Virus record (IMG/VR): IMGVR_UViG_2718218133_000003
DNA: 39,644 nt
From: a virus
Lineage: Duplodnaviria > Heunggongvirae > Uroviricota > Caudoviricetes
Strand: one strand, 5' to 3'
Positions within the stretch are counted from its first letter, which is position 1; every line of letters begins with the position of its first letter. This document shows, in pieces, positions 1,641-12,998 of the stretch. A program made the position numbers and the translations under genes. The notes under the pieces were generated by a model, which made no database searches, was not told the DNA's origin, and saw only the letters and a list, made by a program, of their open reading frames with translations.

Positions 1641-4148
1641 TTAAGAATCAGCCTGACTCGGGATCAGTTTTTGCCAGATAACTGAAACGTATTTTGCCTG
1701 GTAACGGGCGTCATCAAGTGCATTATGGCGCTCACCTTCGAATGGAATAGCCGTTCTGGCATCGAAGTCTATGGCTTTCCCCAGCTCAACGATTGTGCGT
1801 ACATCGCGATCGTTGTAGTAACGCCACGGGCAGGGGATCCCCTGCCGTTCGTATGAACGGCGCAAAATCGTGTTGTCGAAGTTGGCTCCATTTCCCCAGA
1901 CCTGAACAAAAAATTCACCGGAGTTTTCGTCGATAAATTCCCGCAATTGTAACAGTGCATCATCTAACGGGATTTCATCGGTCATAATGGCAGATTGCGC
2001 TTCGCGTGATTGCTTAAGCCACCATTTAATGGTGTCCCGATCAATGACTCCGCCAGCAGTTTCCAGATCGATAGTCTTACTAAATTCCGGTCCCATATCT
2101 CCGGTTTGCGGATCGAAAAATATTGCACCTATTGAGATGATCGGGGCATCAGGATTTTTTCCCATGGTTTCAAGGTCGATCATTAGATGGTCACACGTCC
2201 TGCTGGTGGATGTGATTTCTTGATGACCGTTCACCTTAATTGAGTGATCTGCCGTCTCGCCAGTTTCATTATCGCTATCGTGATGCTGATTGCCGACAGT
2301 GTTCTCCTTGTGTGGATGTTCAGCGCCTTCCATTTCCTCCGGATCATCTTCCTGAACTTCAACCTGATACTCTTCATCGAATGTTTCCTGGTATGTTGCG
2401 TCGCCCATTACCGCGCCACAATCAGGGCAGTTGCCGCCGCCGGTCTGACCGCAGGCGGTGCAGACTTTTTCCACTTCCTGTTGCGCCACTGATTCAGGCT
2501 GTTTCGTTTCTGGCTCGTTTTGTAACGCATTTGGGCTGTTTTGTTCCGCTTTTTGGTAGTTCCGTTCCGATTCATGCTGGTTCTGGTTCACAGAATCGCG
2601 GGTCTGGATCCCCTTAACCCATTTCGGATCATTCGGGTCACTAATCCCTTCAACAAATTCACCACGTGATGCAGCAAGCAACTTATCGGCGTCAGGCTGG
2701 ATGATATTGGCTGCCTGCATAATTTTGTTTACTTCGTCAGCGGTAACTTTTATCGGCTCTGGTTGTTCTGAATCTTCAGCGGTATCTACATTTTGCGGTA
2801 AGCCCGTGTATGTGCCATTTTTTCGGGCAAAATATTCTTCTTTTGTGATTTCAGTGGCGCCAGCAGCCAGTGCCTTATCCAGACCAGAAAGTTTGTTTGC
2901 GCGACCGTATTTTTCTCCGTCCTTATCTGCGAAGAGGAAATAGAACGGCCCCTCACGCTCTACAGATGGTTCAGCTTCCGGCGCGGTTTCATTTTTTGGG
3001 ATATCAGATACCTCAGTTTCCACTGCATCAGTTTGTGTTTCTGATGACTGGAGAACATCAACAGTGCCCAGGTCTGTTTCTTCATTCTCAAACACGCCCT
3101 TTGTCGTCAGGTATTCGCAGATATATTTGTTCAGTGCTACGGGATCTTTGTGAATGTCGATCGGACGCTCACGGACAAGGCCAAAAATAGTTTGGCGGTC
3201 GTAGCGAAGGGCATCAGGCTGTTTGCGCATTGATGCCGAGATACGCTTCCAGTCTTCGCGGTCGTTGTCGATAACTTCATTTTTTGCCCAGCGATGGATG
3301 CTGCCGTCAATGTTTCCGGCATCCACATCACCAGGCCAGAGAGCGTAGGCCAGTTCGTCATCCAGTGTTTTCCATGTCTGCTTGTATTCGCGATGAATGG
3401 CAGCAATGACCGGGCTGATTTTTCCTGTTGAATTTTCAGTGTACTGTTGATTGGCTCTGGCGCGGGCGAGATCAACAACAGACGTGTATTTTCCGGTTTC
3501 CTTGCGTTCACCTTCGCGACGTTTTTTCCAGATGCGCATCTCTGCCTGAATTTCGGGCCATTTAGCACCAGGAATACATTTATGCTTAACCCACCCAATG
3601 GCGTGCAACTTAAGCTCCGGATACATGGCGTTAACTTCTGGCATTTTCATCAACGCTTCAACGATATGTCCGTCGAATGTTGCCATGTCTTCCTGCAACA
3701 ATTCCTGTGCGCTAATAACCATATCAACGGTGATGTTTTCACATGTGTCGAACTTAACCATGACAGCGTTCTGTACTTCAGGGGCCAGCTTGTCAAAAGT
3801 GACGTTCATCGGATCGGATTCAGTCTCAACCGGGACAAAAGAAGCAGACTCCTCATCCCAGCGGTTTTCCTGCATATATTCAGCATCCCATGAATCGAGG
3901 GCAGGGCGGGGTATGCCAGGTTTATCCTCGCAGACAATAAATTTATAAGCGCAGTCCTGAGCAGCCGGATAATGTTCCAGGAATTGCCAGTGAAATTTTG
4001 CTCGAGCACGGCGTTCGTCGCCAGCTTCAATGGCTGTGGCTACAGCCACAGCGCCTTCTTCCCTTGTTGCCAGTTCGTCAGGAATAGCGGCGCAAATAAA
4101 GACTTTACTCATTTGTTTTAACCTCATGACAGATTTAAGGATGAACAA
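1641..4148 (-). CDS. Large phage exonuclease with C-terminal DnaQ-like DEDDh 3'-5' exonuclease domain (full-length form of the ydfE-type gene)
   Basis: 835-aa ORF; C-terminus shows Exo I (LMIDLETMG), Exo II (VWGNGANFDNTIL) and Exo III (HNALDDARYQAKY) motifs; sits in the exo position between xis and the kil-like genes. Confidence 0.8.
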   Translation of the reverse strand: MFILKSVMRLKQMSKVFICAAIPDELATREEGAVAVATAIEAGDERRARAKFHWQFLEHYPAAQDCAYKFIVCEDKPGIPRPALDSWDAEYMQENRWDEESASFVPVETESDPMNVTFDKLAPEVQNAVMVKFDTCENITVDMVISAQELLQEDMATFDGHIVEALMKMPEVNAMYPELKLHAIGWVKHKCIPGAKWPEIQAEMRIWKKRREGERKETGKYTSVVDLARARANQQYTENSTGKISPVIAAIHREYKQTWKTLDDELAYALWPGDVDAGNIDGSIHRWAKNEVIDNDREDWKRISASMRKQPDALRYDRQTIFGLVRERPIDIHKDPVALNKYICEYLTTKGVFENEETDLGTVDVLQSSETQTDAVETEVSDIPKNETAPEAEPSVEREGPFYFLFADKDGEKYGRANKLSGLDKALAAGATEITKEEYFARKNGTYTGLPQNVDTAEDSEQPEPIKVTADEVNKIMQAANIIQPDADKLLAASRGEFVEGISDPNDPKWVKGIQTRDSVNQNQHESERNYQKAEQNSPNALQNEPETKQPESVAQQEVEKVCTACGQTGGGNCPDCGAVMGDATYQETFDEEYQVEVQEDDPEEMEGAEHPHKENTVGNQHHDSDNETGETADHSIKVNGHQEITSTSRTCDHLMIDLETMGKNPDAPIISIGAIFFDPQTGDMGPEFSKTIDLETAGGVIDRDTIKWWLKQSREAQSAIMTDEIPLDDALLQLREFIDENSGEFFVQVWGNGANFDNTILRRSYERQGIPCPWRYYNDRDVRTIVELGKAIDFDARTAIPFEGERHNALDDARYQAKYVSVIWQKLIPSQADS

Positions 4149-4204
4149 ATCCCTGCCATTGCTGGCATATAAGAATGAAACCGGATATTTATTACGGAAC
4201 TGTT

Positions 4205-4396
4205 TTAAAGACCTGCCGGGATTTCGATATTATCCTGGTGAATAACTTTATCGACCGGGTAACAGTTACCGGGAATTTTCTGTTCGGTTGCTGCAGTCAT
4301 ACACTCCTGCATTGTCCTGTGAACACTGACTGCAATATCAACTGGCTCTCCGGAAACAAGAAAAACTGTCAGAACAAGCACAAATGCTGAATTCAT
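4205..4396 (-). CDS. ydfD: YdfD-like small lysis/membrane protein
   Basis: 63-aa product MNSAFVLVLTVFLVSG... with N-terminal hydrophobic segment; ATGA overlap with dicB stop; recognised from memory as Qin YdfD. Confidence 0.65.
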   Translation of the reverse strand: MNSAFVLVLTVFLVSGEPVDIAVSVHRTMQECMTAATEQKIPGNCYPVDKVIHQDNIEIPAGL

Positions 4397-4581
4397 TGTG
4401 CACATCCTTTTGGCATCAGACGTAAACGAGCCAGCATTGAAACAATGCATATTTTATTTAATAGCTCCCGTTCTTGTTTTCTCTTGTTAATGGCATCTTC
4501 AGTAAATACTGGGTTACTGATAGTGACACCAATTTCAAAACAACCTTCAGACGTATTAACGTTTGGTAATAACGTTTTCAT
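4393..4581 (-). CDS. dicB: Cell division inhibitor DicB
   Basis: 62-aa product MKTLLPNVNTSEGCFEIGVTISNPVF... recognised from memory as DicB; directly downstream of dicF as in Qin. Confidence 0.8.
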   Translation of the reverse strand: MKTLLPNVNTSEGCFEIGVTISNPVFTEDAINKRKQERELLNKICIVSMLARLRLMPKGCAQ

Positions 4582-4750
4582 TATCGCGTCCTCAACAATG
4601 AATTTTGTGATGCAGTGCCTGGTGCCTCCAGGTGACGTTAACCAGTTAACAATTAACGCCGGATACAGAGAATCCACCCATAACACTGTTTTTGGTTTTA
4701 ACTGTTCCGCGTGCGCTCAGCCGCATTCACCACATCACAAAATTCACTTT

Positions 4751-4808
4751 AAAAAGGGCGGCAGAGCAGTCACGGAGTAAAACTGATACCGCCAAACGTC
4801 ACCAGAAA
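4751..4808 (-). ncRNA. dicF: DicF small RNA (ftsZ-targeting) with intrinsic terminator
   Basis: Reverse complement reads UUUCUGGUGACGUUUGGCGGUAUCAGUUUUACUCCGUGACUGCUCUGCCGCCC followed by a U-tract; recognised from memory as DicF. Confidence 0.8.
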
Positions 4809-5067
4809 ATTGATAACAGAGGGCGTTGCAGCGGGGTTGTCACTTAAGCGTATGGTCAACCTGACAACCCGGTGTCCTCAACGGGGAAGGAATAACCCCG
4901 CCATACTTACCGCCGCGCCATTTTGCGGGTTGCCACAACCGGAAGCGCACGGTCGAATTAAATTTAACGACACCGTACAGTGAGACGAACTTCGCCGTGC
5001 GCTTTCGTGTTGTGTGCCTGCTTTTAACCACGTCAGGCGAGGTGGTATCCTTAAAATCACCACAGTT

Positions 5068-5643
5068 TTAAGGATTCATTAAGCAATGTCGCAACCACCA
5101 ATAAATCCGCTTAAGAACATGAAAATTGATTACTGGTATAAAGCGCTTACAGTTGTTGGCGCTGCGTTGTTTGTCTTTAATGGAACGTCTTTTTTTGACA
5201 GATATCCCGTTGTTCCATTGGGTTTTTTGTCCTCCGGCATCTTTTTTATTGGTTTGGGGGAGTGGATTAATCACCCTCTCAAAGTGAGATTTATTGGCCC
5301 TGGAGTTTGGACTCGTGGATATAATCGTTCTTCGTGCGCACTCGGTATCATCTTCGACATACTTGGTTGTTTCCTGATTGTTACAGGAGTCGTCAAGTTC
5401 TTCTGATGTAAAACCGCAAATGGGGCACGTAACGGGAATTTTGAAAAGCGTTTCTCCGGGTTCCAGAACAAAATTTTCTGCGGTCTGATTTTGCTTCTCA
5501 TATTTGTGCTCCGCGTCATTGTGAGAGCACATTCTTATTCTGAGTGCCTGTTTAAACTCACTGAAGCTGAGAGCTTCTTCGCCTTCGGCAAGGCCTTCGA
5601 AGTATTCTTCGTAAGCCTTTTCCATGATTGTGTCGAAATCCAT
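5068..5643 (-). CDS. Hypothetical protein; acidic N-terminal ~80 aa with CPICGF..C motif, low-complexity tail
   Basis: ATG at 5643 preceded by AGGTGAG Shine-Dalgarno; no in-frame stop until 5068; the 3' half overlaps the opposite-strand membrane ORF so the true extent is uncertain. Confidence 0.35.
   Translation of the reverse strand: MDFDTIMEKAYEEYFEGLAEGEEALSFSEFKQALRIRMCSHNDAEHKYEKQNQTAENFVLEPGETLFKIPVTCPICGFTSEELDDSCNNQETTKYVEDDTECARRTIISTSPNSRANKSHFERVINPLPQTNKKDAGGQKTQWNNGISVKKRRSIKDKQRSANNCKRFIPVINFHVLKRIYWWLRHCLMNP
5086..5406 (+). CDS. Hypothetical small membrane protein (three predicted hydrophobic segments)
   Basis: 106-aa ORF with AAGGA upstream; hydrophobic stretches ALTVVGAALFVF, GFLSSGIFFIGLGEWI, ALGIIFDILGCFLIVTGVV; antisense to the 5068..5643 ORF. 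Confidence 0.4.
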   Translation: MSQPPINPLKNMKIDYWYKALTVVGAALFVFNGTSFFDRYPVVPLGFLSSGIFFIGLGEWINHPLKVRFIGPGVWTRGYNRSSCALGIIFDILGCFLIVTGVVKFF

Positions 5644-5980
5644 ATCACTCACCTGAGTTTCTTTCCAGCCAGCGACGGGCACCATTTTCGGTTTTAAACG
5701 TTTTGCTTTTGGTATACGTCATCGCGGTGAACGTACCGTCCTGGTTGGGGAACACGCCACATACCGGAGATTCGCTGTTGCCAAGATCGATAGTATCCAT
5801 GCTGACCTCATTTCCCCTTAACGCCGGGGTAGCGGAACAAAAACCTGCTGCATAGTTATTAAAGTTGAACCCTGCCGTCATGTTCTTACGCCTCGGGCTG
5901 GCTACTTAACCCCTGACCACTGCCTGGTAACTCGAAGTATTGCCCTGCATTCTGTGGGGCGGGGTGGGTGGCAGGCATAT

Positions 5981-6024
5981 AATGTACTTTGTGTTCATTG
6001 TTGTAAAGTACTTTTAGTACATTT
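5981..6024. promoter_or_regulatory. Operator-like cluster (OL-type) downstream of repressor gene: AATGTACT repeats and palindrome AAAGTACTTT
   Basis: AATGTACT at 5981..5988, perfect palindrome AAAGTACTTT at 6005..6014, inverted copy AGTACATT at 6017..6024; same motif recurs at the divergent promoter 6541..6573. Confidence 0.45.
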
Positions 6025-6097
6025 TGTGTGTAAAAAAATGAGATGGGATAAAGTGAAGCACAAACCCGGAGGAAGGCGCTACCGGATTTATGCTGGT

Positions 6098-6517
6098 TTA
6101 AGAGGCTTTTTGTTTTTTCTTTCGTGCTAACTCTTCGTAAATTGCATTGTACTTCTGTTTTTTCTCTTCAAGAGTTTTTAAAAGTTCATCTGTCTCACTG
6201 TCAGGGAGCTCGTCCAGAAGGTCAATGATGATTTTTTGTCTTGGATTTAACTCCTGATAGAAACGTACCTGTCCACTTTCTTCTGTATCCTCTCCCAAAA
6301 GATAGGTTGGTGTTGTTCCTATTAGTGTTGCTAATTCCCTTAATTTCTCCCGGCGAGGAATTGTTTCGCCATTAAACCATTTGCTAACCGCTTTTGGTGT
6401 TAATTTCATTCGACGGGCAATTTCTGCCTGCCTTCCATGTTGTTCATAACCAGCGTTTTCACAGGCTAGCGCAAGCCTACTGGCGAACTCTTTACGCGCT
6501 TTATCTTCATGAACCAT
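6098..6517 (-). CDS. Prophage repressor, HTH XRE family (cI/DicA position), no LexA-like S24 domain
   Basis: 139-aa ORF with helix-turn-helix (QAEIARRMKLTPKAVSKWFNGETIP); divergent from Cro-like gene; apparently leaderless start (no Shine-Dalgarno). Confidence 0.8.
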   Translation of the reverse strand: MVHEDKARKEFASRLALACENAGYEQHGRQAEIARRMKLTPKAVSKWFNGETIPRREKLRELATLIGTTPTYLLGEDTEESGQVRFYQELNPRQKIIIDLLDELPDSETDELLKTLEEKKQKYNAIYEELARKKKQKAS

Positions 6518-6540
6518 AAGTTCAATGATATTCGCTCTTG

Positions 6541-6573
6541 AATGTACTGTCAGTTCTGTTATAGCATGTACTC
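6541..6573. promoter_or_regulatory. Operator-like repeats (OR-type) in the divergent repressor/cro intergenic region
   Basis: AATGTACT at 6541..6548 and ATGTACT at 6567..6573 between the divergent genes. Confidence 0.45.
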
Positions 6574-6596
6574 AAAGTTCACATTGTGAGGGTGAT

Positions 6597-6851
6597 ATGA
6601 ACCAGAAAACACTTGAAGATGTAATCAAAACTGTTCGCGTTGCTGTTGTGGCCGACGTTTGTGGTGTCAGCCAAAGAGCAATCTATAAATGGATGGATAA
6701 CGGAAAATTGCCTCGCACAGAATATACCGGCGAAACAAATTACGCTGAAAAAATCGCTCTTGCATCAAACGGATTATTTTCTGCCGATGCAATTTTAACT
6801 ATTGGCAGGAATAAAACTACTACGAAAAAGCTGATGGGAGTTGATTCATGA
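6597..6851 (+). CDS. Cro-like HTH DNA-binding protein (YdaS-like)
   Basis: ATG at 6597 with GAGGGTGA upstream; HTH motif VADVCGVSQRAIYKWMDNGKLP; divergent from repressor. Confidence 0.7.
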   Translation: MNQKTLEDVIKTVRVAVVADVCGVSQRAIYKWMDNGKLPRTEYTGETNYAEKIALASNGLFSADAILTIGRNKTTTKKLMGVDS

Positions 6852-7273
6852 AAATCAAGCATGAACACATCCGCATGGCGATGAATGCCTGGGCGCATCC
6901 GGACGGCGAAAAAGTACCGGCTGCGAAAATTACCAAAGCGTATTTCGAGCTGGGAATGACGTTCCCGGAACTGAATGACGACAGCCATCCGGAAGCCCTG
7001 GCTCGCAATACCCAGAAAATTTTCCGCTGGGTAGAGAAAGACACCCCTGATGCAGTTGAAAAAATTCAGGCGTTGTTACCAGCGATCGAAAAGGCAATGC
7101 CACCTTTGCTGGTGGCCAGAATGCGCAGCCACAGTTCAGCTTATTTTCGGGAGCTGGTGGAGACGCGGGAGCGACTGGTGAGAGACGCTGATGATTTTGT
7201 CGCAGTGGCAATCGCCGGTTTCAATCAGATGAACCGTGGTGGCCCGGCAGGAAATGCTGTGGCAGTACATTGA
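6848..7273 (+). CDS. YdaT-like (CII-position) protein
   Basis: 141-aa ORF beginning MKIKHEHI, recalled as the characteristic YdaT family N-terminus; ATGA overlap with upstream gene. Confidence 0.6.
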   Translation: MKIKHEHIRMAMNAWAHPDGEKVPAAKITKAYFELGMTFPELNDDSHPEALARNTQKIFRWVEKDTPDAVEKIQALLPAIEKAMPPLLVARMRSHSSAYFRELVETRERLVRDADDFVAVAIAGFNQMNRGGPAGNAVAVH

Positions 7274-7344
7274 CTGACAATAGCCATATCGAATCGCTTC
7301 CGGCAACTCGTGAGTAAAAAGATTCGGTATCAGAAGAGGTGAGT

Positions 7345-9139: not shown

Positions 9140-10531
9140 TTATGCTTCATGTTGCTTTTTGAGATCGCTTCTAGCATAGCTCCACTCAATAATGTTGTCG
9201 GGTCGTTGCTGATCGAAAAGGATACGGGATTCAATACCATTACCTAAAAAGCTGGTATTCCCATCTACGTAAGAAGCTATCCCTTGTGAACCAACACGAA
9301 GAATATTTTCTAATGGCTGCTTTGTTCTTGCTGCATCGCTAAGGAGATATAAACCCGGGTACGTTTTGTTAGCACGGTGAAAAAAAAGTTCATTGTCAAA
9401 ACACATGACGATGATTATTTGTCCCGACATGAGATCGGAGAGCATTTCAGTTGGCAGATGCAAACTCATAAATGGTCGAGACAAAGGGTCAAAGAATGAA
9501 TCATTTATATTCACAACAGGGCTTTTTATACCGAGACTATCCATCCATCCATTGAAGGCAACAAAGCCCATTTCAGAATCACGGTACATACCTAAGAACA
9601 AACATTCATCAATAGTATCAATTGCCCAATTTTTTCCTCCGCGAATAATCTCCCACATTTTAACTAAGCGGTGGGTATAAAATTCAGACGGATGATCTAT
9701 CTCATTGATTTTAACTTTAGACTGATGAAAGTTGTCAAAGCCCTCGCCAGTATTAATCGCCTCCAGAACATTCATGCCACGAATGATTTGCCTTTTTATG
9801 CGATTAAATTGCTTAACATCATTATCAGGCATATTGTTAATGAAGTTTTCTTCAAAGTGCGGACATTCTGAGATAACAGAAAATTCAGCAGCTTCATAAA
9901 GCTCATTATTCTTTTCACCTGTTTTAACTTCCACGAGCTGGAAGCCATCCAGTAGATTAAAGGTGACTAAATCTCCCACATGAACAAATGTGCTCATGTC
10001 AGAGACAATCGCTACGGAGTGTTTGTCCTGGTTGATAAGATCGGCTGCGACCATAGAATCAATTATGTTATCTTCTGATAGATTGTCATTGCTTGCATTA
10101 ATAGGTAAACGCCGCAAACTAGAGTGTTCTTCATCAAGAATGCTCCAAATTATTGAGTCAATACAACGGCGAAGAATAAGAATTTCAAATTTTTTTAAAC
10201 TTATTTCATCAATACACTTTTCTTTATTTTCTTTATCCTTGTTTCGATGGTGCTCTTTTTTTTCAGTTTCCAATCTTTTTATATCTCTCAGCCGAATAAT
10301 AATCTCAAAAGATATGATTTTTTGTGAGTCTTTCCAATTTTTGAGACAGGTTTCATACTCTGCAAGAAAATCCTCATCATTGGAAGGTAGTTCTTGAATT
10401 GGATTCCCTCCCCTTATCATTTTGGCAAGTGCATGCATTAAAGATACATAATGAGGTGATAAAATTGTCCAAAACTTCCTAAACGGTTTGTACTTTTCAA
10501 GAAAAGTTGACTCATCAGTATAATTCATCAT
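9140..10531 (-). CDS. Hypothetical 463-aa protein, AT-rich, possible PD-(D/E)xK nuclease motif; candidate defence component
   Basis: ATG at 10531 with GAGG about 8 nt upstream; motif HVGDLVTF...QLVEVKTGE fits D...E.K; codon and base composition clearly more AT-rich than flanking phage genes. Confidence 0.6.
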   Translation of the reverse strand: MMNYTDESTFLEKYKPFRKFWTILSPHYVSLMHALAKMIRGGNPIQELPSNDEDFLAEYETCLKNWKDSQKIISFEIIIRLRDIKRLETEKKEHHRNKDKENKEKCIDEISLKKFEILILRRCIDSIIWSILDEEHSSLRRLPINASNDNLSEDNIIDSMVAADLINQDKHSVAIVSDMSTFVHVGDLVTFNLLDGFQLVEVKTGEKNNELYEAAEFSVISECPHFEENFINNMPDNDVKQFNRIKRQIIRGMNVLEAINTGEGFDNFHQSKVKINEIDHPSEFYTHRLVKMWEIIRGGKNWAIDTIDECLFLGMYRDSEMGFVAFNGWMDSLGIKSPVVNINDSFFDPLSRPFMSLHLPTEMLSDLMSGQIIIVMCFDNELFFHRANKTYPGLYLLSDAARTKQPLENILRVGSQGIASYVDGNTSFLGNGIESRILFDQQRPDNIIEWSYARSDLKKQHEA

Positions 10532-10620
10532 AACCAAACCTCATTCCTCTTATCTATTTTCCTCAAGGTATAAAATACCAGCCTTTTTTACATAATTATA
10601 GTTATAATATGAAGTCTCAT

Positions 10621-11490
10621 TCAGATATCTTCATACTGTACGTAAGAAATATTTGAGCCTCTGATACCATAATCTTCTAAACTGCCTGATTTTTTCTCAC
10701 CTCTATATAAAGCAACTATCCATCGAGCATTTTCTTGGATGCTTTTATTTATTTCAGTAAAGTATTCACCGTCAACTTCGGCGAGCGAGTGGCCTAAAAC
10801 GATGACCTCGTCCACATTTTTAAGCGATGAGAAAAAAACGTTTTCTTCTTTAATTATGTCTTCGCTGGGCTTGAATGTATTACCGAAGTATTCGTTTATT
10901 CTGTCGTATGCCTCTGCTATTCTTGTATCTTGATCCGGTCCTATATATGGATTTAGTGACTTTTCCACCCTAAAACTATGACCAAGTATGAGATCGTCAT
11001 CGTAACTACAATTGCCGTGAATATGTATGATTTGCTCGTCTGGAACGGCATAGATCTGCTGCAAGGTATTTGTATAATTAAATGAAAAATAGATGCTTTC
11101 TCTTGGTATGGGCGGGATGTATTGCTTAGGATTGTAAGCATCGGCTATGTTAATCCCTTTAACCCAATCAGCGAATTGCTCCTTCAAACGAGCTGACAGC
11201 ATTTGTGTGATTTTATTTACTTCATATTGGTAATCGTGATGATAAGCATCGCTCCAATCATCGGTATTGTATGAAGCCAAAAATATCTCACTGTTTTGAA
11301 GGATAAGCTCATAATCAATTTCACCTAAAGCATTTTCTAACTCATTCCACTCGTCCCCAGCAGGAATGTATTCTTCTATCGCGTCATATAGATCTTGGTC
11401 ATTTTTTTCTACATACGACTTAAAGTGCTTGTATCCTGTTGGTAAGCCATGACGCATGTCAAATCCATTTCCTATTATGTAAAGCCTCAT
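10621..11490 (-). CDS. AbiH-like abortive-infection family protein (candidate defence component)
   Basis: Start MRLYIIGNGFDMRHGLPTGYKHF matches the IIGNGFD..HGL N-terminal signature recalled for AbiH (Pfam PF14253); AAGGGA Shine-Dalgarno; AT-rich. Confidence 0.6.
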   Translation of the reverse strand: MRLYIIGNGFDMRHGLPTGYKHFKSYVEKNDQDLYDAIEEYIPAGDEWNELENALGEIDYELILQNSEIFLASYNTDDWSDAYHHDYQYEVNKITQMLSARLKEQFADWVKGINIADAYNPKQYIPPIPRESIYFSFNYTNTLQQIYAVPDEQIIHIHGNCSYDDDLILGHSFRVEKSLNPYIGPDQDTRIAEAYDRINEYFGNTFKPSEDIIKEENVFFSSLKNVDEVIVLGHSLAEVDGEYFTEINKSIQENARWIVALYRGEKKSGSLEDYGIRGSNISYVQYEDI

Positions 11491-12105
11491 TGTTTTTCCC
11501 TTAGTCGAATTGTATAAAAATACTAACATGGCCTGCTCCACGTTGACTACTATCCCCTCCTTTGAGTAATGCCTTCATCAGATGTAACAACATTTGCGAG
11601 CTTCCACAGTTCGCTCAAAGCGGACTAGAAGGTTAGCTTGCGTCGGACTTGGCGTATTTAAAGAAGTGCTGGTGGAGACTGGTTGTTGTGTTCCATTTCT
11701 ACAGAACAAAATCACAGAAACTATACCCAATAGTTATATTGAATCAATGATGAGACAGCCTCATATTTATCAGGACTGGTGTACGTCCAATACAGGAGGT
11801 TGTCGTGCTGGTTCTCAAATGTGCGCTAGCTATTGCGGCTGTAATGGCAATTTATTGTCTTGCTGTTGTTCTTACGGATCGCCTTTCTGATTGATTTTAT
11901 ATTGGCGAGGTGACGTGAGTTAAGTAGAATTGCTGCGGGTGCTTGAGGCTATCTGCCTCAGGCATGAACACCAAAGGCAGATAGAGAAAAGCCCCAGTTA
12001 ACATTACGCGTCCTGCAAGACGCTTAACATTAATCTGAGGCCAATTTCATGCTAGACACATGTAGGTTAGCCTCTTACGTGCCGAAAGGCAAGGAGAAGC
12101 AGGCT

Positions 12106-12261: not shown

Positions 12262-12330
12262 GAGACCAGGCGAGGGAGAAATCCCTCGCCACCTCTGATG
12301 TGTCAGGCATCCTCAATGCACCCGCACTTA

Positions 12331-12356
12331 ACCCGCTTCGGCGGGTTTATTTTATC
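12331..12356 (+). terminator. Intrinsic terminator downstream of hok
   Basis: Hairpin AACCCGC-ttcg-GCGGGTT followed by a T-rich tract. Confidence 0.6.
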
Positions 12357-12719
12357 TGTAAATATTTTTATAAAAATAATGCCCACACACAGCATAAAAC
12401 AAAAAGTATCACAGATAAAAAAGGAGCGTAATGTGCAGATTTGTTGTTTTCCATATTTACTCACTTTAACATAATCAAAATTGATATGGTTGTTGTTTTG
12501 GTGGTTTCAAACGAGATGTTATGGTGATCTGGTAAAATTGCATAACATTAAAATTTAATTTATCTAATCGCTTTTAATAATAAGCGTTGTGTTTATCCCA
12601 ACAATCTGTTGTTTGATTTTTATTCCATTAATGTAGGGGCTTTACACTGGAACCAGTTTATTTATACTTTATACGCCAGCCTGAACAACTGGCACCTGCT
12701 GCGCCAGCAGAGACAACCG

Positions 12720-12998
12720 ATGGCGCACGATACCAAATTACACAATTCTGATGATTCTGCCGTCTTTGCCAGCAGGTGCGGACGGCGTTTTCATGCATTC
12801 AAATCGGACTGGTTCCAGCATCCACCATGCACTGAAGAGCAGGCTGAATGGATAATTCAGTGTTACCGCAGGCGCGGATACGAGGTTAAAAAAGCCCTTA
12901 GCCTCGACTACCGTCACTGGATAATCTCAGTCAGATTGCCTTACTCCGAACGCCCACCGCGTCCGTCCCGTACATTCCAGCAACGCATCTGGAGGTAA
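12720..12998 (+). CDS. rem: Rem-like small protein (Qin rem position)
   Basis: Synteny hok-rem-ydfU as in Qin; start MAHDTKL inside the longer ORF 12609..12998; assignment by position rather than recalled sequence. Confidence 0.4.
   Translation: MAHDTKLHNSDDSAVFASRCGRRFHAFKSDWFQHPPCTEEQAEWIIQCYRRRGYEVKKALSLDYRHWIISVRLPYSERPPRPSRTFQQRIWR

Follow-up and report, generated by a model that had tools for sequence, protein, structure and literature searches.

What do the repeats on either side of a short repressor gene do in IMG/VR virus record IMGVR_UViG_2718218133_000003, and what kind of repressor would read them? The stretch of 39,644 nucleotides (nt) analyzed here, referred to throughout as the window, is a lambdoid prophage integrated at the Qin site, and the original prediction held that a repeated 8-bp motif flanks the gene in the manner of left (OL) and right (OR) operators, around a repressor of 139 amino acids (aa) that is leaderless, lacks an autocleavage domain and belongs to the DicA/RacR type. 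The observations gathered below make it very likely, as far as sequence can tell, that the repeats are the operator sites of a prophage immunity switch of the HK022 type, arranged around a non-cleavable chimeric repressor.

Motif copies were found on both sides of the gene, as predicted, at 5981-6023 and 6541-6572: AATGTACT matches at 5981-5988 (plus strand), 6016-6023 (minus strand) and 6541-6548 (plus strand), ATGTACT is present at 6566-6572, and the palindrome AAAGTACTTT occupies 6005-6014. When enrichment was scanned across the whole window, the bare 8-mer was modestly overrepresented (five matches against 1.07 expected, with five or more reached in 2 of 100 shuffles), two of its five matches lay away from the repressor region (7264 and 20614), and AWGTACT showed no significant enrichment in the window; with enrichment weak or absent, both were dropped as functional units. 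Alignment of the 8-mer copies revealed each to be a single arm of an imperfect inverted repeat of 17-19 bp, (A)ATGwAC-N5-GTwCAT(T). Allowing up to one mismatch, the 17-mer ATGwAC-N5-GTwCAT has four matches in the 39.6 kb against 0.33 expected, a number reached in none of 100 shuffles, and all four adjoin the repressor gene, within 5982-6022 or 6509-6582; a fifth, with two mismatches, lies at 6542-6558. The recurrence of the motif was hence retained, confined to the repressor flanks, with the inverted repeat in place of the 8-mer as its unit, and the palindrome AAAGTACTTT, formerly taken for an operator of its own, turned out to be one OL2 half-site plus part of the spacer, palindromic because the half-site core GTAC is self-complementary. 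Away from the repressor, the isolated AATGTACT at 7264-7271 (minus strand), in the last ydaT codons (..V H stop), is a lone half-site whose partner is poor (three mismatches), and it probably arose by chance.

A position weight matrix trained solely on the syntenic sites of Raoultella, Salmonella and metagenome loci, which had been located with the pattern derived from this window, ranked exactly the five sites ahead of everything else in the window: they scored 16.5-22.3 bits and the runner-up 12.4; at 14 bits or more there were five sites in the window compared with 0.18 in shuffles. The same matrix scan found no third OL site and no site after cro in the window. The repressor gene, the five sites and the promoters that they overlap are as follows.

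6098-6517, minus strand: repressor gene, 139 aa, with an HK022-CI-like helix-turn-helix (HTH) domain (residues ~1-76), a disordered linker (77-87) and a DicA-like C-terminal helical hairpin (92-138).
5981-5999: OL1, AATGTAC-TTTGT-GTTCATT, no mismatch in the 17-mer, 16.5 bits, overlapping the -10 of the leftward promoter.
6005-6023: OL2, AAAGTAC-TTTTA-GTACATT, one mismatch, 20.7 bits, overlapping the leftward -35 and containing AAAGTACTTT.
6508-6526: OR3, CATGAAC-CATAA-GTTCAAT, one mismatch, 22.3 bits, the top matrix match.
6541-6559: OR2, AATGTAC-TGTCA-GTTCTGT, two mismatches, 17.0 bits, covering the -35 and spacer of PR and the -35 of PRM.
6565-6583: OR1, CATGTAC-TCAAA-GTTCACA, one mismatch, 17.2 bits, over the predicted PR start site.
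5979-6007, minus strand: PL-like promoter, TTTACA-17-CATTAT, -35 at 6002-6007 and -10 at 5979-5984, from a consensus scan (9 of 12 matches).
6525-6553, minus strand: PRM-like promoter, CTGACA-17-TATCAT, -35 at 6548-6553 inside OR2 and -10 at 6525-6530, from a consensus scan (10 of 12 matches).
6538-6565, plus strand: PR-like promoter, TTGAAT-16-TATAGC, with TG at 6557-6558 (extended -10), recognized by eye and by homology to HK022 pR.

The sites are spaced by 24 bp between OL1 and OL2, 33 bp between OR3 and OR2 and 24 bp between OR2 and OR1, and the consensus scan found both leftward promoters independently of them. The PL-like promoter heads the ydfA/ydfB/ydfC-dicF-dicB-ydfD-recE operon. OR3, a third upstream site absent from the earlier account, is centered on the A of the repressor ATG (6517), with the start codon in its spacer and codons 2-3 (GTT CAT) forming one half-site. 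The analogy with OL and OR was therefore borne out, as the downstream cluster lies over a leftward promoter and the upstream cluster over divergent promoters, both correspond by position to the annotated operators and promoters of HK022, and both fall inside a cassette that is exchanged as one unit among heteroimmune relatives.

The comparison with HK022, for which we used the immunity region in GenBank X16093.1 (annotated oL, pL, oR and pR), identifies the operators as being of the HK022 type and thus not new. In HK022, too, pL carries a pair of oL sites at a distance of 24 bp, and the three oR sites are separated by 33 and 24 bp, counted from the one that covers the cI start codon. OL1 corresponds to the oL at 2201-2215 and OL2 to that at 2225-2239, with identical half-sites and all differences in the spacers; OR3 corresponds to oR3 at 3000-3014 with an identical core (15 of 15 bases), OR2 to the oR at 3033-3047 except for the last base, and OR1 to the oR at 3057-3071 except for one W position. 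The -10 and -35 of pL occupy the same positions, as do the -35 (TTGACT) and -10 (CATAAT) of pR. Homology to HK022 at the DNA level covers 5974-6038 (80%) and 6357-6692 (72%) and is absent across 6039-6356, that is, across everything after the HTH domain together with the 3' spacer. The proteins follow the same trend: the N-terminal domain of the repressor is 58% identical to HK022 CI over residues 4-75 (47% over 99 aa, E 6e-32), its recognition helix (helix 3), PKAVSKWF, differs by one conservative residue from the PKAISKWF of HK022, and the Cro-like protein matches its HK022 counterpart at 60% identity over 73 aa (E 1e-33). With a DNA-binding domain, operators and Cro all of the HK022 type, the prophage is likely to have the immunity of HK022 or one that overlaps it. 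The differences lie elsewhere. HK022 CI has 235 aa with an S24 C-terminal domain where a DicA-like tail is found here beyond residue ~76; an extra pattern match just after HK022 cro (3323-3339, two mismatches) has no equivalent here; and HK022 carries nun/cIII/kil to the left of OL (its record lacks the rightward genes), where the flanking genes of the window are dicB/dicF and a YdaT-type CII analogue. The HK022 immunity region is reportedly the subject of Oberto et al. 1989 and of Carlson & Little 1993, the latter cited in PMC8053113. The operators of 933W/phi24B were also considered and gave no match to the pattern, though the N-terminal domain is 51% identical, and a literature search linking HK022 with DicA gave nothing relevant.

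Conservation among relatives followed the half-sites and not the spacers. An E. coli variant of 88% identity keeps the OL1 half-sites and differs at three of the five spacer bases, while its DNA from OL2 to the repressor stop is heavily diverged; phage 666R9 differs by one OL2 spacer base. More distant relatives of the repressor take a short form in Salmonella and, in Raoultella, Klebsiella and metagenomes, a long one that carries S24; their N-terminal domains are 62-72% identical, the recognition helix is unchanged, and their loci exhibit three upstream sites in the order OR1-24-OR2-33-OR3(ATG), spaced as in the window. A distal pair 24 bp apart on a TTTACA-17 promoter was observed in the Raoultella (L006) and Salmonella (L008) loci, the only two with enough DNA 3' of the repressor to show an OL pair, and the L006 promoter (TTTACA-17-CATTAT) is identical to the PL of the window. 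Between repressor and OL, in a rexAB-like slot, L006 carries a 480-aa AAA_15/AAA_21 ATPase (3808-5250), a possible defence gene, and L008 a HigB/HigA pair (3553-4220), whereas the window has nothing there. L006 also bears an extra operator-like site at 5383-5399, 53 bp (start to start) upstream of OL2, and a further overlapping site that shares a half-site with OL2. As negative controls, a heteroimmune phage with the same flanks and Qin both lacked the operator motif.

The borders of the switch can be read from its mosaic neighbours. Homology between the window and phage vB_EcoS-689R5 ends at 5969 and resumes at 6842, which indicates that OL, repressor, OR and cro are exchanged as one cassette:

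5970-6841: immunity cassette (OL, repressor, OR, cro), delimited by the homology breakpoints against vB_EcoS-689R5.

Phages 666R9, 673R7 and 613R10 share only 5813-6871 with the window, and at least 80% of 5880-6900 is held by 1046 of 5426 complete E. coli genomes. Within its own cassette, vB_EcoS-689R5 (L003) carries a repeat of its own, approximately ATCTAAAAnnAnTTAGAT, downstream (1380-1440) and upstream (2124-2222) of its repressor, a two-sided design with another specificity.

In the repressor itself, Pfam detected an HTH_3 domain (E 1.8e-9) and no Peptidase_S24 (PF00717) match at E values up to 0.01, in agreement with the predicted absence of an autocleavage domain from the 139-aa protein; sister proteins bearing S24 align with it only to residue ~76. 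The remainder resembles DicA. BLASTP against K-12 DicA aligned residues 30-137 (E 5e-15), with residues 88-139 matching the DicA C-terminus and an overall identity of 29%. A HMMER search with the tail alone retrieved 39 representative clusters of proteins of 117-216 aa, in each of which the tail forms the extreme C-terminus. Its motif, LxPRxxILLxLFxxLPxSE...LEEKKQxYD, is well conserved across the 39 clusters and DicA aligns to it too, while the N-terminal HTH domains are very diverse. The AlphaFold2 model places an HTH domain at residues 2-74, a disordered linker at 77-87 and a helical hairpin at 92-103 and 106-138. A sequence search of the PDB gave the N-terminal domain of P22 c2 as the sole match (E 0.006), and Foldseek against the PDB returned generic XRE-type HTH proteins; no fold family could be assigned to the tail, for which SinR, the SPC32H repressor and the arbitrium-system entry 9iaq are weak HTH-plus-tail analogues with high root-mean-square deviation. 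Of the assignment to the DicA/RacR type, the DicA-like tail and the lack of a cleavage domain thus stand; the DNA-binding half is HK022 CI-like, and the alignments describe the protein as a chimera of an HK022-type DNA-binding domain and a tail common to short, non-cleavable repressors of the DicA kind. The same N-terminal domain, with an identical recognition helix and the same operators, is fused to S24 in Raoultella, Klebsiella and metagenome prophages (P0021/L006, P0034/L009-L011, P0025, P0038 and P0040), and judged from these alignments S24 and the DicA-like tail have been swapped in nature while the operator specificity stayed the same.

The start of the repressor gene has no Shine-Dalgarno sequence upstream of its ATG, and a TATCAT -10 ends 7 nt before it. 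In five diverged loci, namely the window, L006, L008, L009/L010 and HK022, a -10 hexamer stands exactly 7 nt before the ATG (TATCAT, TATGAT, TATAAT or TACAAT, and TATAGT in HK022), and this circumstantial pattern favours the predicted leaderless state; the transcript is probably leaderless. The OR3 half-site GTwCA in codons 2-3 is kept in L006 and L008-L010 even where His3 is replaced by Gln (GTACAA), which points to selection at the level of the DNA. At the other end of the gene, a conserved structure was found:

6057-6094, minus strand: hairpin directly after the repressor stop; RNA fold of -19.2 kcal/mol, z -4.5, with none of 200 shuffles as stable.

In an alignment of the variants the stems of this hairpin are conserved and the loop is variable. 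It has no canonical T-run after it and was not called by the terminator scan, and it may be a weak terminator or a stabilizer of the RNA 3' end.

We propose that the switch would operate as follows. Each operator would presumably be bound by a dimer of the 139-aa repressor, the tail of which most likely provides dimerization and cooperativity and is likely to serve as a docking surface for small antirepressors as well. Occupancy of OL1 and OL2 would keep the ydfA-dicF-dicB-recE operon off, and at OR1 and OR2 the bound repressor would lie over the start site and -35/spacer of the promoter that drives cro, ydaT and replication rightward. OR3 would be centered on the first base of the repressor's own, probably leaderless, transcript, so that at high concentration the repressor is proposed to shut off its own gene. 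The 84-aa Cro-like protein would presumably bind the same operators with the order of preference reversed. For HK022 CI, cooperative binding at neighbouring operators and a loop between OL and OR have been described (PMC8053113), and for the present repressor tail-mediated cooperativity and OL-OR looping are plausible, given that PaaR2 of CP-933P octamerizes.

Several points weigh against this interpretation. PR is weak by consensus (-10 TATAGC) and fell under the promoter-scan threshold; in the variant L005 the same -10 reads TATATT. With the repressor transcript starting as predicted, OR2 would lie near -33 and includes the -35 of that promoter, a placement at odds with lambda-style activation (positive autoregulation) from about -42. 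The best NCBIfam model was the DicA subfamily NF007257, at 56.8 bits and under its curated cut-off of 101, a score that marks the repressor as a relative and not an orthologue of DicA, and the role of the ~50-residue tail in dimerization or antirepressor binding is putative. The origin of the training pattern makes the matrix test not fully independent, and no antirepressor, LexA box, Rem homologue or DinI homologue was found in the window. Repressor binding, the transcript start and induction are predictions from sequence; these, along with the order of site occupancy and cross-immunity with HK022, are what we infer from the directly computed sites, statistics, conservation, homologies and domain composition.

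The arrangement has close parallels in known switches. Lambda has the divergent PR and PRM, three OR sites, a repressor-controlled PL and a spacing of about 24 bp between adjacent sites in common with the window, and its cI transcript is leaderless; here there are two OL sites as opposed to three, OR2 overlaps the -35 of the repressor promoter and not -42, OR3 is centered on +1, and S24 is lacking. In Qin of E. coli K-12, too, a cro-like gene is divergent from the repressor, followed by the promoter and ydfA-ydfB-ydfC-dicF-dicB, and DicA is a short repressor with a homologous C-terminal tail and operators on both sides of its gene. Its HTH specificity and operator (Oc = TTGTTAGTCATAACTAACAA) are different, and Qin carries the antirepressor gene rem where the window has a 355-nt AT-rich non-coding stretch. 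DicA/DicC has been described as a bistable switch that flips spontaneously, independently of RecA, and responds to the antirepressor Rem (PMC10448788). The PaaR2-YdaS-YdaT system of CP-933P (E. coli O157:H7) shows a short CI analogue, an OR and an OL/PL analogue, a YdaT CII analogue, bistability and, as here, a TTGATT-N6-AATCAA box at the cro/ydaT junction; PaaR2, which we likened by description, is experimentally leaderless and regulates OR and OL/PL (PMC8630535). CP-933P differs in its operators (GTTTAGTAA repeats), in the repressor N-terminus (MQKKE...) and in a toxin-antitoxin pair between repressor and PL, where the window has nothing. Finally, the Gifsy repressors GfoR, GtgR and GfhR, compared by description, are of ~140 aa without a cleavage domain and are inactivated by antirepressors, and the non-cleavable class, of which DicA and RacR are described as members, reportedly occurs often in E. 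coli (PMC3121763, Lemire et al. 2011). A dinI-antirepressor operon with a LexA box, as in Gifsy, was not found in the window.

How the prophage would be induced follows in part from this composition: with no S24 domain, RecA-stimulated self-cleavage is excluded, and by analogy we infer a non-RecA route. Induction would proceed through an antirepressor (none recognizable in the window, possibly trans-acting) or through stochastic flipping between repressor and Cro, and stochastic switching or an antirepressor, possibly trans-acting, would be the most likely routes. The window contains no CTGT-N8-ACAG LexA box, and a scored scan against TACTGTATATATATACAGTA gave poor matches only, none near a plausible gene. 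No annotated antirepressor is present in the window, no Rem homologue was detected there (best tblastn E 0.42), and no DinI homologue was found in it. The rem slot, from hokD to the gene upstream of ydfU, spans 12349-12703 (the 355 AT-rich nt) and has no open reading frame (ORF) of at least 60 aa; a 58-aa ORF at 12298-12474 overlaps its start. Adjoining the slot, a 92-aa ORF at 12720-12998 belongs to PHROG 1212 (function unknown), and an unannotated homologue with 78% identity lies between rem and ydfU of K-12 Qin (L004 4310-4585). As a candidate antirepressor the 92-aa ORF was unsupported, having matches to unknown-function PHROGs only and no similarity to Rem.

The nearest experimental counterpart is Tritos (LF82 prophage 3), 99.1% identical over 5600-7300. 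In Tritos lysogens CI is expressed 24-fold above background, virions are released spontaneously and the phage forms plaques (PMC9928086). In Tritos the rem slot (L012 36334-38090) holds a hypothetical gene and an ImmA/IrrE metallopeptidase fused to an XRE-type HTH, which the window lacks. ImmA-type proteases cleave XRE-type repressors in other elements, and by analogy the ImmA/IrrE-HTH protein could bear on the induction of Tritos.

Among the alternatives, the most durable, which we regard as unlikely though deserving of serious attention, is that the prophage is SOS-inducible after all: another part of the host genome, such as a second prophage, would supply an antirepressor under LexA control that docks on the tail, in a crosstalk like that of Gifsy and Fels. 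It would accommodate the lack of an antirepressor within the window, the far stronger conservation of the tail than of the N-terminal domains, and the ability of antirepressors to act in trans on non-cognate short repressors (PMC3121763). It sits poorly with the absence of Tritos from the LF82 prophages for which induction by ciprofloxacin or trimethoprim was reported (PMC9928086) and with the lack of induction of the Qin dicBp by mitomycin C (PMC10448788).

Improbable, in our judgement, is the proposal that the repeats are mainly Cro sites, with the 84-aa Cro-like protein as the relevant factor. The close identity of that protein to HK022 Cro (60%) speaks for it, as does the sharing of the repressor's operators by Cro/YdaS in lambdoid phages and CP-933P (PMC8630535); yet the two readings are not exclusive, both proteins being expected to bind, and the recognition helix of the repressor is conserved along with the sites across genera, in short and S24 forms alike. 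Moreover, OL/PL must be off in the lysogen, where the repressor and not Cro is expressed, as the level of CI in Tritos attests. Far less probable still is decay as the reason for the missing autocleavage domain, with the prophage defective and its 139-aa gene left over from an HK022-like cI of the S24 type. The nearest relatives of its N-terminal domain (Raoultella, Klebsiella) and HK022 CI are indeed full-length S24 repressors, but the tail is a conserved module, folded in the model, common to DicA and the 39 clusters and always C-terminal; the repressor ORF is intact in the cassette of 1046 complete genomes; the same gene is expressed in the plaque-forming Tritos; and the window is complete in its int, replication, lysis and morphogenesis genes. 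Hardly credible, lastly, is that the motif recurs by chance or as AT-rich promoter sequence with a self-complementary GTAC and no operator function, for the weak enrichment of the 8-mer, its copies at 7264 and 20614 and the non-significance of AWGTACT are outweighed by the 17-mer statistics, the matrix ranking, the conservation of half-sites and not spacers, the spacing in five diverged loci and the HK022 operators, which effectively refute it.

With the repeats read as HK022-type operators of a non-cleavable chimeric repressor, the mechanism is ordinary for a lambdoid phage and introduces nothing new in kind; what is added here is the correct operator unit, the extra OR3 site and the combination of HK022 specificity with a DicA-type non-cleavable tail in a very common E. 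coli cassette, which controls the dicB/dicF cell-division inhibitors as well as a complete prophage. More tentatively, and as a reading that we think somewhat less likely than not, we suggest that the HK022 specificity circulates with two interchangeable induction modules, that the non-cleavable form is blind to SOS and dominant, and that the tail is a common antirepressor handle. One module would be the self-cleaving S24 domain (HK022, Raoultella, Klebsiella) and the other the DicA-like tail (about one fifth of complete E. coli genomes, Salmonella). If both forms are homoimmune, a resident prophage would be blind to SOS and would supply a dominant non-cleavable repressor that blocks both superinfection by, and induction of, HK022-type SOS-inducible phages; the conserved tail, if this is true, would offer a shared handle by which few antirepressors control many heteroimmune prophages. 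Because the sites are HK022 operators, what decades of biochemistry have taught about them applies here directly, and the pair offers a natural comparison, with the same operators and DNA-binding domain and an SOS-cleavable or non-cleavable C-terminus, that can test the effect of the induction module on prophage stability, cross-immunity and prophage crosstalk.

To the right of the switch, the following features were recognized.

6597-6851, plus strand: Cro-like protein, 84 aa, preceded by the Shine-Dalgarno sequence GAGGGTG; PHROG 35, transcriptional repressor.
6841-6858: YdaT (CII-analogue) box TTGATTCATGAAAATCAA, at the cro stop/ydaT start, the only match without mismatch in the window.
6848-7273, plus strand: YdaT-family CII-like regulator, 141 aa; Pfam YdaT_toxin (E 7e-10) and PHROG 163, CII-like activator (E 2e-45).

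The YdaT box forms the right edge of the immunity cassette, at the mosaic breakpoint 6841/6842, and its sequence and location equal those of the footprinted OM site of CP-933P YdaT (PMC9986795). After the cro-like gene and ydaT, the rightward genes continue with a replication gene. Leftward, on the repressor strand and downstream of it, lie homologues of ydfA/ydfB/ydfC, the DicF RNA, dicB, ydfD and a RecE-like exonuclease. Rfam searches of 4000-7000 detected the DicF small RNA at 4756-4807 (minus strand, 76.7 bits, above the gathering score) and a sub-threshold STnc100 at 4549-4758 (minus strand, 34.4 against 47 bits), with no match in the operator regions. The leader of ~90 nt from the PL start to the ydfA-like ORF (5880-5969) recurs at 95-100% conservation in 3765 of the 5426 E. 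coli genomes regardless of immunity type, with matches in K-12 assemblies too, and has no Rfam match. Between the replication and nin regions, two opposite-strand genes at 9140-11541 (minus strand) encode a 465-aa hypothetical protein with no PHROG match and an AbiH-family abortive-infection protein; the pair is probably a defence moron, and Tritos carries another gene at the same position.

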